This document shows positions 6,952 to 55,252 of a stretch of DNA of 64,000 bases, in pieces. Within the stretch, counting starts at the first letter, position 1. Each line of letters opens with the position of its first letter. This DNA is from Candidatus Tayloriibacteriota bacterium (GTDB taxonomy: Bacteria > Patescibacteriota > Minisyncoccia > Phycocordibacterales > SIBU01). The position numbers were made by a program, and so were the translations under genes. The notes below the pieces were generated by a model. That model was not told the origin of the DNA, ran no database searches, and was given only the letters and a program-made list of their open reading frames with translations. The stretch lies in contig JACPHR010000018.1 in NCBI GenBank assembly GCA_016188455.1, positions 5,079 through 69,078 on the forward strand, read 5' to 3'.

Positions 6952-7212
6952 TCACCTATAAATCTCGTGGTCGCCGACGGCAAGCAAAACAACCTCGTTT
7001 TTTGAAACATAATTGAACACAATCCTGATTTTATAATTAACTGAAAAACCATACCGGTCTTGGAGAGGTCCGTGCAATTTATGCACCTTAAGCTGTCGGT
7101 GACTCCGCGGGTTTTTAAGTAACTCAATTTTCTCCAACACTTCATTTTGCAACACCTCTTCAAGATTATTGAATTGTCGTATGAACGTCGCCTTGTAGGC
7201 TATTTTAATCAT
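6952..7212 (-). CDS. RelE/ParE-family type II toxin
   Basis: 86-aa protein with a C-terminal ...KIRIVFNYVSKNEVVLLAVGDHEIY motif typical of RelE/ParE mRNA-interferase toxins. Overlaps the upstream antitoxin by 4 bp. Confidence 0.55.
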   Translation of the reverse strand: MIKIAYKATFIRQFNNLEEVLQNEVLEKIELLKNPRSHRQLKVHKLHGPLQDRYGFSVNYKIRIVFNYVSKNEVVLLAVGDHEIYR

Positions 7213-7424
7213 TTCGTTCGCAGTTTCCGCGCCAGCACTTTTAAGTCTCCTCTCAAAATTGGCTCCCGCTCCGCCCGAAGCACCGCTTGCACCGCTTCTT
7301 CTTCCGAAAGAAGTTTCAAAGCAGTTCGAACTACCGCGGCCTTGTTTGGTGAGCGGCCGCTCTTTACCTGCCGATTGATGAATTCTTCAAGATGCGCCGG
7401 CAATGGTACCGAGAGTGTAGTCAT
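7209..7424 (-). CDS. Ribbon-helix-helix antitoxin (ParD/CopG-like)
   Basis: Start refined to MTTLSVPLPAHLEEFINRQVKSGRSPNKAAVVRTALKLL (RHH fold). Paired with the downstream toxin; direct TGATAAT repeats lie upstream (7431-7452). Confidence 0.5.
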   Translation of the reverse strand: MTTLSVPLPAHLEEFINRQVKSGRSPNKAAVVRTALKLLSEEEAVQAVLRAEREPILRGDLKVLARKLRTK

Positions 7425-7610
7425 AAATGTATGATAATCTAATATGATAATATCATATACCCTCGGCTTTTCCTTGTCAAATAAATCTCGGTGATTTATT
7501 TGACCCTGAGGCTTTGTCGAATGGGTCAAGAGGCGCGGGCTAAAACAGCCTCGCCGTCCGGCCGAGGCATAGGTGGAATTGGCAGAGAGCGACAAAACTG
7601 CTCGGTAGAA

Positions 7611-9917: not shown

Positions 9918-9990
9918 CCTTGAATTACGAAACTCGGTTTCCGCGAAGAGAACTTCATCCCGCGCGCCTTGTCCGGACTGAGGCAAGCCC
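9918..9990. mobile_element. Truncated family-A element (left half only)
   Basis: ccttgaattacgaaactcggtttccgcgaagagaacttcatcccgcgcgccttgtccggac is the reverse complement of the right half of the nadE-internal copy. No matching right end is present. Confidence 0.4.
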
Positions 9991-10091
9991 CCGCACCAAT
10001 TTCACCAAAGATGCGCGAGGGGTTTTGACGAGAGAGGCGGGGATGGACACGCGACAATGCGCGGTATTATGACCCACAGAGAGGGCAGTTC

Positions 10092-10529
10092 TTGAGTCAA
10101 GACCCGCTCCATCTCGCTCTAGGGAATGCACAGCAAGTTAAACAACTGACGGGGCAGGAACAGCAAGCGTATTTGGCAGAGCCACAGAATCTAAATAGCC
10201 ACTCTTACGGAAAAAATAATCCGCTAAAGTTTAGTGATCCAAGCGGATTGTTCTGGTGGTACGGGTTCTACGATTGGACAGGCTACGAGGGTATTCGGGG
10301 GAGTGGCAATGAAAGCAGGAGAAGTGTTTGGTGGCCACAGCCGGGCATTAAATGCCATCCAGTGGTAATTGGTGTAATTGGTGTCAGTAATTGTAATTGG
10401 TGTCATAATTGGTGTCAGATAATTGGTGTCATAATTGGTGTCAGTAATTGGTGTCTAATTGGTGTCATAATTGGTGTCAGGTACCTTTTAGTAATTGGTG
10501 TCAGTAGTAATTGGTGTAATTGGTGGTAA
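10092..10529 (+). pseudogene. Orphan C-terminal fragment of an RHS/YD-repeat polymorphic toxin (NPxxxxDPxGL tip), running into a tandem-repeat array
   Basis: ...QNLNSHSYGKNNPLKFSDPSGL is the RHS core-end motif. No upstream RHS core and no recognisable toxin domain; the ORF continues into 11-bp repeats. Confidence 0.45.
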
Positions 10530-10548
10530 TTGGTGTCAGGTACCTTTT
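10372..10548. repeat. Tandem array of 11-12-bp units (AATTGGTGTCA[T/G]) ending in GGTGTCAGGTACCTTTT (two copies)
   Basis: About 12 direct units read directly. Terminal 17-mers at 10473-10489 and 10532-10548. Confidence 0.7.
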
Positions 10549-10579
10549 ATTTTCCAACATTTCATGATACACTCTCATC

Positions 10580-11260
10580 ATGGGACGAGCACCACGAGTT
10601 GATGTCGGCGGCGAGGTCTATCATATTATAAATCGTGCCAACGGCCGGCAGACAATCTTCCACACAAAAGAGGAGTATTTGCATTTTGAGCAACTTCTCA
10701 CTGAAGCTAAAGAACTGAATAGCATGCGTATTCTTGCCTATATCCTTATGTCAAACCACTGGCACTTGGTACTTCATCCTCACCGTGACGGCGATCTTTC
10801 TGTGTTCATGCAATGGCTTACCTTAACTCACACCCAGCAATATCACTCAAGAACAAAAACGATTGGCTACGGCCATCTCTATCAGGGACGATACAAGTCA
10901 TTTCTCGTCGAAAAAGACAACCATCTTCTCCAGCTTATCCGCTATGTGGAGCGCAATGCTTTTCGTGCTAAACTTGTTAAACAGGCGGAGAATTGGCGAT
11001 GGGGAAGTGCATACCGGAGAACCCAGGGTGCACCGCAAGCAAAAGCATTACTGAGTGATACCATTATTGAGCTTCCCAAAGATTATCTTGAGTGGTTGAA
11101 CGAAAAAGAAGATGCGGGCGCCCTTGCTATTATTCGCCAGTCAGTAAACAAAGGAACCCCATTGGGAGCAGTAAAATGGGTCAAGCGGACAGTTGATAAA
11201 TTTGATTTACTTTTAACCACGCGCTTGCGTGGAAGGCCGAAAGATGAAAAAGGTACCTGA
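10580..11260 (+). CDS. REP-associated tyrosine transposase (RAYT; IS200/IS605-like HUH Y1 transposase)
   Basis: YHIINRANGRQTIF...ILAYILMSNHWHLVL (HuH motif) ...YQGRYKS (catalytic Tyr region). About 226 aa, typical RAYT length. Confidence 0.75.
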   Translation: MGRAPRVDVGGEVYHIINRANGRQTIFHTKEEYLHFEQLLTEAKELNSMRILAYILMSNHWHLVLHPHRDGDLSVFMQWLTLTHTQQYHSRTKTIGYGHLYQGRYKSFLVEKDNHLLQLIRYVERNAFRAKLVKQAENWRWGSAYRRTQGAPQAKALLSDTIIELPKDYLEWLNEKEDAGALAIIRQSVNKGTPLGAVKWVKRTVDKFDLLLTTRLRGRPKDEKGT

Positions 11261-11480
11261 CACCAATTCCTCAATTCCTGACACCAATTCCCCAATTCCA
11301 ATTCCTGACACCAATTCCCATTGGGAGCAGTAAAATGGGTCAAGCGGACAGTTGATAAATTTGATTTACTTTTAACCACGCGCTTGCGTGGAAGGCCGAA
11401 AGATGAAAAAGGTACCTGACACCAATTCCTCTGACACCAATTCCTGACACCAATTCCCTGACACCAATTCCACAGGTTAC
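11247..11480. repeat. Inverted copy of the 11-bp repeat array (TGACACCAATT units) with AAAAGGTACCTGACACC ends, including a 106-bp tandem duplication of the RAYT 3' end
   Basis: 11161-11266 is repeated at 11320-11425 (period 159 bp). The unit orientation is the reverse complement of the upstream array. Confidence 0.65.
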
Positions 11481-11557
11481 TTTTCCCACTAATTACCTAA
11501 ATAATTAATAACGGTATGAAAAACCCACACCTCCTGGAGAGGTGCGGGGTAAGAGGT

Positions 11558-12097
11558 CTAACTCAAGATCGCTTTGAGTTTAAGGATATGCGGGTCATCA
11601 TCCATGTGTCGTCTTGTTACCCGGAGCAGGGTTTGAAGCAAAGAATGCCCGCGAACCTTCCAATTCTCCCGTAACACGCTTTCTTCTTGCGGCGATGAGG
11701 GAAATACATAGACCGCGATATTCCAGTCTTTGCTTTCGGCTACCCGTTTTGCTTTTTCTTTGAGTTCACACAATTTCAGGCGTAGATGTTCTGAAACCGC
11801 GGGAGTTTGCTGAAGTTGCTCAAAGAATAAGTCAAGTGACATATCATAATCCGTGTACAGGTGAAGTCCTTGTTCCATGAGAGACCAATCTCCATCCAAG
11901 AGAAAAGTTAACATGGCAATCTTTCTTATCTGTTCCACAGCAACAATACATGTCTCAAATAAATCCAATCGAAAGGCATGAGAAGGGACTAGCCCCGTTT
12001 CTTCCAGAACATTTTCAAGAATTTCGGATGCCTCTTTCGATTTTTTACTTATGTCAAAAAACTCGGGTATTTCTTCCAGTCGGAATGTGTAGGTCAT
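11558..12097 (-). CDS. Hypothetical protein
   Basis: 179-aa ORF with no recognisable motifs. Confidence 0.35.
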   Translation of the reverse strand: MTYTFRLEEIPEFFDISKKSKEASEILENVLEETGLVPSHAFRLDLFETCIVAVEQIRKIAMLTFLLDGDWSLMEQGLHLYTDYDMSLDLFFEQLQQTPAVSEHLRLKLCELKEKAKRVAESKDWNIAVYVFPSSPQEESVLRENWKVRGHSLLQTLLRVTRRHMDDDPHILKLKAILS

Positions 12098-54093: not shown

Positions 54094-54172
54094 CGCCAGT
54101 TTTCTCTATTCTCTATTTTCTATTCTCTACTCTACTCTCTATTCTCTACCCTCTATTTTCTAACTTTCGGAT
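54094..54172. repeat. Short tandem CTATTCTCT/CTATTTTCT repeat tract
   Basis: tctctattctctattttctattctctactctactctctattctctaccctctattttc. Inverted and direct copies lie at 55074-55140 and 55203-55252. Confidence 0.6.
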
Positions 54173-55073
54173 AATTTTCCACAAACCAATTAACGGTCTG
54201 CTCTATGCCTCCGTCAACCGGAGTAAACTTAAAATCCGGCAGGTACTTTTTCAGTTTCGTTCCGTCCGACGGTTTGCGGAACTGGCCGTCGGGTTTAGAG
54301 CCGTCAAAAACGATTTTGCCCGTGAACCCCATTTTTTTGGCGATGACGAGGACGAGGTCGCGTATGGAGGTTTCAATACCGGAGGTAAATATGATCGGCG
54401 CTGACTCTTTGTAATTATCAAGCATCCACAGCGCCAGTTTGGCAATGTCATCCGTCAACACCAGTTCGCGCAAAGGTTTGCCGCTGCCCCAGACGACCAG
54501 GTCCGTATTATTTTTCTTGGCCAGGTAGCATTTATGGATGAGAGATGGCACCACGTGGCCGTCCGTGAAATTAAAATTATCATTCGGGCCGTAGATGTTT
54601 GTGGGAATGGCGATAATGTAATTGCAGCCCCACTCGCTGTTATAGGCGCTGCTTTGCACTTCAAGCATCCTTTTGGCGTAGGCATAGCCGAAATTTGAAG
54701 GATGAGGCGGGCCGTTATGCAGGTCTTTTTCGTTGAGCGGGTAGGGGCACTTGTCGGGGAAGACGCAGGTGGACATGAAAGAAATCAGTTTTTTGACGCC
54801 GGTCAATCGCGCCGCTTCCAAGACGTTGATGTTTATCATGATGTTGTTGCGGAAGTATTCCCCGGAGTGAATCATGTTGCCGCCGATGCCGCCCACTTGG
54901 GCGGCCAGATGAATCACTTTCGCCGGCCGGTGCTTTTTGAAGAGCTTCACGGTTTGGTTAAAATCGGTCAAGTCGCCGTCTTTCCGAGAAAGAAAAACCA
55001 TATTTGGCAGACCCAATCTTTTAATGGCCGAACCGATAAGGCCGCTGCCTCCCGTGACTAATGTTATAGACAT
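54153..55073 (-). CDS. GDP-L-fucose synthase family epimerase/reductase (paralog)
   Basis: ITLVTGGSGLIGSAI...YAYAKRM...NIYGPNDNFN...HVVPSLI pattern of Fcl/WcaG. Confidence 0.65.
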   Translation of the reverse strand: MSITLVTGGSGLIGSAIKRLGLPNMVFLSRKDGDLTDFNQTVKLFKKHRPAKVIHLAAQVGGIGGNMIHSGEYFRNNIMININVLEAARLTGVKKLISFMSTCVFPDKCPYPLNEKDLHNGPPHPSNFGYAYAKRMLEVQSSAYNSEWGCNYIIAIPTNIYGPNDNFNFTDGHVVPSLIHKCYLAKKNNTDLVVWGSGKPLRELVLTDDIAKLALWMLDNYKESAPIIFTSGIETSIRDLVLVIAKKMGFTGKIVFDGSKPDGQFRKPSDGTKLKKYLPDFKFTPVDGGIEQTVNWFVENYPKVRK

Positions 55074-55252
55074 AGATAATAGATGTTAGAAAACAGATAA
55101 TAGACGGTAGAAATTAGAGAATAGAAAATAGAGATTAGACTTTTTAAGAAATTGCCTTGATAAATTTGTTAAGCATTTTCGTAATTATTAGTTTTCATTT
55201 CTTTCTGTGTTCTATTTTCTATTCTCTACTCTCTATTTTCTATTCTCTCATA
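55074..55252. repeat. Inverted pair of CTATTTTCTATTCTCT-type repeat tracts with a 70-nt AT-rich spacer
   Basis: gagaatagaaaatagag (55115-55131) opposed to ctctattttctattctc (about 55225-55245). Confidence 0.55.

Follow-up and report, generated by a model that had tools for sequence, protein, structure and literature searches.

A TIRtron in a Patescibacteria genome: a single-copy TIRYT gene, inverted 21-nt sites and strand-biased arrays of partial site copies

The current study concerns a 64-kb stretch of DNA (contig JACPHR010000018.1 of assembly GCA_016188455.1, hereafter the window), which derives from a Candidatus Taylorbacteria metagenome-assembled genome (MAG) and carries a gene for a 226-aa Y1/HUH tyrosine endonuclease of the TIRYT type (10580-11260, + strand). 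The gene and its surroundings form a TIRtron, a described but barely studied kind of element, here found in the Patescibacteria. TIRtrons were defined as RAYT-like genes (RAYT, repetitive extragenic palindrome-associated tyrosine transposase) that are flanked by terminal inverted repeats rather than by GTAG-tagged repetitive extragenic palindromes (REPs), and their products were termed TIRYTs (Di Nocera 2013, PMC3733652). They correspond roughly to subclass 2.1 of TnpA_Y1 (Bertels group 1), for which no REP was found (Quentin et al. 2018, PMC6006769), even though this subclass is the second largest Y1 branch and is present in ~15% of strains (PMC6006769). In our literature search, TIRYTs were mentioned only by these two papers. 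The interpretation we consider probable is that a single-copy TIRYT gene lies between inverted sites of ~21 nt, and that the arrays of short repeats next to these sites are the product of local stutter, which the enzyme itself likely triggers.

Results

The window protein is matched by PF01797 (Y1_Tnp) with an E value of 2e-15 and 57 bits versus a cutoff of 23 (Pfam scan). Its HUH motif is H60-W61-H62, in the context NHWH, and its candidate nucleophile is Tyr122 within RYVERNA; H60, W61, H62 and Tyr122 are invariant in 32 homologs, and the tyrosine motif reads YVERNA here and YVERNP in most homologs. These results bear out the original prediction, made from the bare sequence, of a 226-aa RAYT-like Y1/HUH gene with an HWH motif between inverted repeats. 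When the 32 homologs were combined into a profile, the top solved relative was 4ER8, the TnpA_REP of E. coli, and the same structure came first in a Foldseek search with an AlphaFold2 model of the window protein (pLDDT 86.9; E 3e-8, TM 0.73), followed by the TnpA proteins of ISDra2 and IS608. Alignment to rba 2408, a TIRYT of Rhodopirellula baltica whose sequence was taken from Additional file 5 (a supplementary alignment) of PMC3733652, gave 47% identity over 221 aa (E 3e-74). Both proteins contain HWH, QWLTLTHTQ, GHLYQGRYKSF, RYVERNA, an RGRP tail and a C-terminus ending in KGT. The suggestion that the locus might represent an undescribed type of REP must therefore be abandoned, as TIRtrons have been known since 2013 (PMC3733652) and rba 2408, to which the window protein has 47% identity, is among the TIRYTs listed there. 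For the C-terminal portion (residues 133-226), a Pfam scan with E values up to 10 returned no helix-turn-helix (HTH) family and nothing credible, and the model predicts this domain to be helical. The protein closes with an AT-hook-like tail, RGRPKDEKGT (11225-11257, residues 216-226). The model shows this tail as disordered, and part of it is encoded by the right terminal site described below. The tripeptide GRP occurs inside the last 16 residues of 114 of 120 homologs, 52 of which end in GT.

The gene is bracketed by a 21-nt perfect inverted repeat, AATTGGTGTCAGGTACCTTTT, which is present in two copies per side, as had been proposed for what was then called a 17-mer end. On the left, the distal copy L1 (10469-10489, + strand) matches the right copies perfectly over 21 nt, and the core of the gene-proximal copy L2 (10528-10548, + strand; also AATTGGTGTCAGGTACCTTTT) begins 48 nt upstream of the ATG. 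On the right, R1 (11248-11268, - strand) overlaps the final codons AAA GGT ACC TGA, and its loop contains the stop codon at 11258-11260 (TCAG on the bottom strand being CTGA on the + strand), whereas R2 (11407-11427, - strand) is situated inside the second copy of a 115-nt duplication. A 13-nt core of the site, GGTGTCAGGTACC, occurs nowhere in the 64 kb beyond these four ends, even at two mismatches. Many TIRtron repeats have the motif GGGGWSAS in common (PMC3733652); the repeat core in the window, GGTGTCAG, is one mismatch from it, and relatives at 50-57% identity have GGGGTCAG or GGGGACAG at that position. The bases 5' of the window sites are ..GTAATT or ..GGAATT with no GTAG, and A/T runs occupy this position in most relatives. 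An Rfam search of this locus and five motif-rich loci placed no family over the site. Two further candidate readings of the site were rejected. Its stem and T run do not make an intrinsic terminator, as the stem is too weak and a promoter/terminator scan made no call, and the KpnI-type GGTACC is not a conserved feature, as relatives show GGAACC, GCCACC or GACCCC at that position.

The sites are accompanied by arrays of an 11-mer, AATTGGTGTCA. When up to one mismatch is allowed, the + strand has 12 copies between 10367 and 10538, 9 of them exact, and the - strand has 7, in the intervals 11258-11316 and 11417-11469. Chance would yield ~1 match in 64 kb, and the remainder of the window has only two matches, both with one mismatch; the inverted 11-mer arrays on the two sides of the gene are as real as originally described. 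Their units are uneven: 0-3 nt separate them, and many are truncated to AATTGGTG or AATTG. The left outer array (10365-10468, + strand) consists of ~9 irregular units of the form (T/GT)AATTGGTG(TCAG), each of which copies part of the left site's 5' half. These units stop at GGTG, GTC, GTCA or GTCAG and never include GGTACC, and an inner left array (10490-10527, + strand) places another 3-4 partial units between L1 and L2. Right array 1 (11269-11316, - strand) is built from units of GGAATTGGTGTCAG plus truncated GAATTG(GG), and right array 2 (11428-11471, - strand) adds three more units, GGAATTGGTGTCAG(G/A), outside R2. The bases preceding the units differ by side, being T or GT on the left and GG on the right, and each array must therefore have been copied from its own end. 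It is the 21-nt site that constitutes the associated repeat, and not a short tandem array as first supposed, the 11-mers being partial copies of its 5' half. Because each end gives rise to its own units by local copying, a genome that lacks the 11-mer at other positions is uninformative; the informative unit for dispersal is the core GGTGTCAGGTACCTTT, which is dispersed in many genomes.

The right end also includes an exact 115-nt duplication, the second copy of which (11317-11431, + strand) reproduces 11158-11272 with 100% identity at a period of 159 and holds the last 103 nt of the gene together with R2. The junction joins CCAATTCC to CATTGGGAGC, with CCC as microhomology at the junction of this 159-nt duplication. 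A tandem duplication had been recognized here before; it is real and exact, but the extents assigned to it (11161-11266 and 11320-11425) were too short.

To determine how much of this anatomy exists outside the MAG, we consulted Logan assemblies, each of which is built from a single sequencing run of the same project and provides an independent view. Contig L001 (SRR12113401) corresponds to window positions 10012-11512 and contains the whole left array and right array 2 exactly, without the 159-nt duplication, which is likewise missing from a contig of another run that covers the right side only (L217, SRR12113428). Contigs of four other runs (L213-L216) stop at 11402, 30 bases (k-1) inside the second repeat copy. 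In a de Bruijn graph such ends signify a branch, and hence two continuations of the repeat in the reads. The sequence of right array 2 is the same in the MAG and in six Logan assemblies, and of six independent assemblies of this population two lack the duplication. Misassembly, a concern the original prediction had itself raised, does not account for the arrays. The duplication exists in a fraction of the population, is not fixed and is probably polymorphic. To the left, neighbouring Logan contigs end at 9944 and the contig of the element begins at 10012; the interval 9945-10041 therefore probably recurs in other parts of the metagenome, and a conserved Rhs core end is its most likely identity.

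A broader view of the site was obtained from a protein-anchored scan of metagenomes in which the motif was not presupposed. It yielded 80 loci whose proteins are 50-71% identical to the query, and pooling these with gene-bearing loci found earlier gave 88 non-redundant relatives (42-90% identity). In 74 of them, the 130 nt ahead of the start contain a G[GT]G[TA]CAG site; its typical loop-to-ATG distance is 28-53 nt, and in most relatives the site core lies ~33 to 57 nt before the start codon. An inverted copy at or near the stop codon is found equally often (74/88). The interlock between site and gene end recurs as well, with the loop forming the TGA stop in 50 of 90 relatives. The general form of the site is (A/T)4-GG[T/G]G[T/A]-CAG-N5-(A/T)4, an imperfect palindrome whose consensus folds at -5.4 kcal/mol (z -3.4). 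Stem pair 5-19 takes the form T-A in 50 sites, A-T in 40, C-G in 4 and G-C in 5; overall it is paired in 101 of 145 sites versus 62 after shuffling, and 0 of 2000 shuffles reached the observed value. Similarly, the inner-stem variants GGTGT/ACACC, GGTGC/GCACC and GGGGT/ACCCC all retain pairing. Between site and gene (10549-10579, and the same position in L129-L208), most relatives possess a -10-like box, TGnTATAAT or GATATACT, 6-9 nt before the start, a placement that suggests a leaderless mRNA with the site at about -35 and possibly autoregulation.

The site is also found apart from the gene. A scan of species-representative genomes for the 16-mer core GGTGTCAGGTACCTTT located at least 120 loci, and the figures that follow refer to the matches listed, which contain 176 copies. 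These are distributed among Planctomycetota (including Pirellulaceae, Rhodopirellula and Phycisphaerales), Acidobacteriota and many Patescibacteria. AAAA precedes 103 of the 176 copies versus 0.7 expected, which identifies them as members of one repeat family with the consensus AAAAGGTGTCAGGTACCTTTT, and about 20 of the 120 loci look like chance matches. The copies are single, in tandem or in doublets of both relative orientations, and a homolog of the gene is present at only ~15 of the 120 loci. Furthermore, the flanks of the protein-anchored relatives contain 33 solitary copies of the relatives' own sites in 240 kb, versus 0.3 expected. Viral contigs returned a single match to the 16-mer, probably by chance, and a plasmid search with the window protein retrieved distant relatives only (at most 38% identity), so that neither scan gave any sign of plasmid or phage carriage. 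Searching the literature for the exact motif strings retrieved nothing relevant.

The arrays of the window are an instance of a family-wide pattern with a pronounced polarity. Among 131 ends in the protein-anchored relatives, the 5' half-site has 106 additional copies on the outer side versus 2 on the inner side, and such stutter affects 53 of the ends (40%). Most outer copies (85 of 106) end at or before the loop, the remainder being duplicates of the whole site. In a de-duplicated set of 129 ends, left and right ends are equally affected (27/66 and 26/63) and the periods are mostly 8-20 nt. Solitary sites exhibit the same bias, with ~65 partial copies on the 5' side versus a handful on the 3' side. 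The number of stutter units does not vary with the predicted stability of the hairpin (rho 0.05, p 0.54), a result that makes stalling on structural grounds alone less credible. At other loci, some units include clearly local flanking sequence (e.g. GGGGCGAATTAAAGGTGTCAG and GAATACGGTGTCAG). The arrays are evolutionarily labile: a relative at 71% identity has clean single sites and is otherwise intact, and a relative at 90% identity has different arrays and duplicated whole ends. One locus (L101) contains an extra fragment made of the gene 3' end and a site, similar to the 159-nt duplication. We found no published description of half-site stutter arrays, and the accounts of TIRtrons and subclass 2.1 are silent on them; both the stutter scar and the identity of the site across phyla appear to be undescribed.

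Several features of the neighbourhood deserve mention. An orphan fragment of an Rhs-type core C-terminus (10065-10364, + strand), recognizable by ARYYDPQRGQFLSQDP and YGKNNPLKFSDPSGL and followed by a short tip, forms an open reading frame (ORF) that runs into the left stutter array, and in L004, the relative at 71% identity, the element directly follows a LysM/Ntox44 toxin gene and small ORFs. On the basis of these two cases, such elements may tend to occupy polymorphic-toxin loci. On the other side, ~50 nt past the last stutter unit, a strong intrinsic-terminator-like hairpin (11524-11548, - strand; 11 pairs and a T run) would serve the convergent gene at 11558-12097. Neither the 179-aa product of that gene nor that of the next (287 aa) has a Pfam match. 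Farther to the left, at a distance of ~3 kb (~7200-7430, seen in L218), a small ParD-antitoxin-like gene and a second small ORF adjoin a gene for a 734-aa glycosyltransferase. Far from the element, intergenic arrays of the heptamers TTCTCTA/TTTTCTA and their reverse complements TAGAGAA/TAGAAAA (54102-54162, 55072-55139 and 55202-55248) surround the gene at 54153-55073 (- strand) in a glycan-biosynthesis cluster.

Discussion

A local replicative or slippage-type process, as the original prediction had already contemplated, is the best explanation for the arrays; the key issue is what sets it off. By analogy with known Y1 enzymes, the site that the TIRYT is expected to recognize is the 21-nt imperfect palindrome and not the 11-mer. 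IS608 TnpA, ISDra2 TnpA and TnpA_REP all bind their sites and cut and rejoin one DNA strand there. The TIRYT would act in a comparable manner, binding its site, presumably as a single-strand hairpin in most relatives, and cutting and rejoining at that point. Such activity could also spread gene-less copies of the site around a genome. The right site is interlocked with the coding sequence, where it encodes K-G-T-stop. The 11-14-nt arrays do not form a repeat family of their own but are stutter: parts of the 5' half-site, at some loci with several flanking bases, have been duplicated locally and repeatedly. The duplicates are joined at microhomologies and accumulate on the outer (5') side of each site. 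Duplicated whole ends, the 159-nt duplication and the additional fragment in L101 may represent larger events of the same type. The most likely trigger is the enzyme, either through a nick in or near the CAG loop or through a tight complex that blocks synthesis. A 3' end made or stalled in the 5' arm or at the loop would be trimmed, mispair by 1-3 bases a few bases upstream and be re-extended. We favor an enzyme-linked trigger because of the strand asymmetry, the recurrence at one motif family in three phyla and the lack of dependence on hairpin stability.

Several observations weigh against this interpretation. Firstly, the other ~62 kb of the window contain neither the core GGTGTCAGGTACCTTT nor the site, and REP-like dispersal is unproven for this particular genome. 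Secondly, the window site is a poor hairpin, with AATT unpaired opposite TTTT and a fold of -0.7 kcal/mol, no better than that of shuffled sequence; the closest relatives share this arrangement. The covarying stem argues well for hairpin recognition in the family, but for the window copy such recognition is unsupported, as its facing arms do not pair and its fold is no better than random. Thirdly, the stutter end-points cluster at two positions, after GG[TG]G and after CAG(G), and a few 3'-side copies start with CAG, so that a single precise nick would be insufficient to account for them. Furthermore, we know of no biochemistry for any TIRYT, and an array that has reached two units can grow by ordinary slippage, with no enzyme required.

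Plain replication slippage is a serious rival for the cause of the stutter, albeit one we regard as rather unlikely on balance. In this scenario, a short palindrome or low-complexity flank stalls the polymerase and the units expand and contract in the manner of a microsatellite. Such an origin would fit the 0-3 nt of microhomology at the junctions (for instance CAGG joined to AATT beside GGAATT), the differences in unit number among close relatives and the periods of 8-20 nt, which are typical of slippage. What it does not readily explain is the strong excess of 5' over 3' copies, which persists even at solitary and near-perfect palindromes, or the recurrence of stutter at a single motif family in three phyla and at ~40% of ends. 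Predicted hairpin stability is irrelevant to the outcome, and the very weak hairpin of the window has one of the largest arrays.

A different proposal, in which the locus as a whole moves autonomously as an active IS200/IS605-type insertion sequence with the inverted repeats as its transposon ends, appears improbable. The repeats do bracket the gene exactly, two adjacent copies exist in one relative (L126), and L101 has its extra fragment of gene 3' end and site. Nevertheless, there is one copy in 64 kb, the relative at 71% identity stands in the same context at the five distinct places shown, from 11 contigs, and most of the listed copies of the site are gene-less. In addition, IS200/IS605 ends are not inverted repeats, neither the protein search nor the 16-mer scan found close relatives on plasmids or viral contigs, and Y---N[P/A] is the signature of the RAYT class and not the Y---Q of IS200 transposases (PMC6006769).

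Slightly less probable still is the idea that the units are selected iterons, i.e. multiple double-strand binding sites for the C-terminal domain or the AT-hook beside a nick site. The half-site present in the units is the most conserved one, the arrays adjoin the putative nick hairpin, and the RGRP tail that might bind them is conserved in 114 of 120 homologs; the origins of geminiviruses and circoviruses provide a precedent, with iterons beside a nicked stem-loop. On the other hand, 60% of ends have no array, including those of the otherwise intact 71%-identical relative, the units are ragged and truncated at variable points, and neither their number nor their sequence is kept between relatives at 90% identity. 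Solitary sites distant from any gene have arrays as well. Lastly, it is very improbable that the arrays and the duplication are assembly artefacts: the two Logan contigs without the 159-nt duplication might be cited in favor of this, but the left array is the same in the MAG and L001, as is right array 2 in the MAG and six Logan assemblies, comparable arrays exist in dozens of unrelated JGI, ENA and NCBI assemblies, and the k-mer branch in four runs is what is expected when both junctions are in the reads.

If the enzyme is indeed the trigger, one could go further and regard the stutter arrays as in vivo footprints of TIRYT activity that record strand-specific breakage at the CAG loop. We advance this extension only tentatively and consider it doubtful as yet. 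Were it true, the arrays would offer a first handle on where, and on which strand, the cross-phylum Y1 branch represented by subclass 2.1 acts, and would imply that the enzyme is active today in a reduced Candidate Phyla Radiation genome, as the polymorphic 159-nt duplication suggests. Irrespective of this, the locus varies within a present-day population. TIRYTs are without known function, and the locus and its relatives furnish a testable prediction of the cut position. At least the clade of rba 2408 is predicted to have a defined recognition site of ~21 nt, which is REP-like in being single, in doublets or in tandem. The near-identity of the core 16-mer across three phyla could be explained by one copy being locked into the last codons of the gene. 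Lastly, the strand-biased stutter scar provides a simple sequence signature by which such sites can be found.

When compared with known systems, the element resembles the rolling-circle Rep origins of geminiviruses and circoviruses only in how it might work, as both place short direct repeats beside a hairpin that an HUH enzyme should nick. The iterons of those origins are conserved, regularly spaced and functional, whereas the units here are ragged, variable in number and missing in many relatives. With the IS200/IS605 family (IS608, ISDra2) it shares the Y1 HUH fold. In that family, the established mechanism is recognition of small imperfect hairpins at the element ends. Those hairpins lie on one strand and are not inverted, the transposase is ~150 aa with Y---Q, identical copies are numerous and tnpB is often present. 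None of these latter features was seen in the window, where the ends are inverted, the motif is Y---N[A/P] and the element exists in one copy in 64 kb.

The REPtron of E. coli, comprising TnpA_REP/RAYT with REPs and bacterial interspersed mosaic elements, is the best structural and profile match. It is similarly a single-copy Y1 gene surrounded by inverted short palindromic repeats, and its repeat is also dispersed in gene-less form. The two nevertheless differ in several respects. The window protein shows just 21% identity to E. coli RAYT, scores 61.9 bits with the NCBIfam model NF047646 (REP_Tyr_transpos), under the curated equivalog cutoff of 80, and has an extra C-terminal domain of ~90 aa. 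A GTAG/GTGG tetranucleotide marks the 5' foot of the hairpin in E. coli and is absent from the window sites. Moreover, REPs are species-specific (PMC6006769), whereas the sequence of the site described here is conserved across phyla.

The closest parallels are the TIRtrons and, roughly equivalent to them, subclass 2.1. Members of subclass 2.1 have N-H-u-H and Y---NP motifs, a length of ~238 aa and a C-terminal HTH-like domain (Bac_DnaA_C, HTH_23 or HTH_28) (PMC6006769). The window protein agrees with this in its 226 aa, its NHWH and its Y---N[A/P], but the described HTH was not detected by Pfam in its C-terminal half. Likewise, no REP was reported for the subclass, yet the repeats of the relatives collected here are imperfect palindromes with covariation. 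As for TIRtrons themselves, rba 2408 also lies between inverted repeats, the 3' one of which overlaps the gene, and the TIRtron repeat is also single, dimeric or clustered in other genomes. One feature that sets the present element apart is its host, a MAG of the Patescibacteria (Taylorbacteria).

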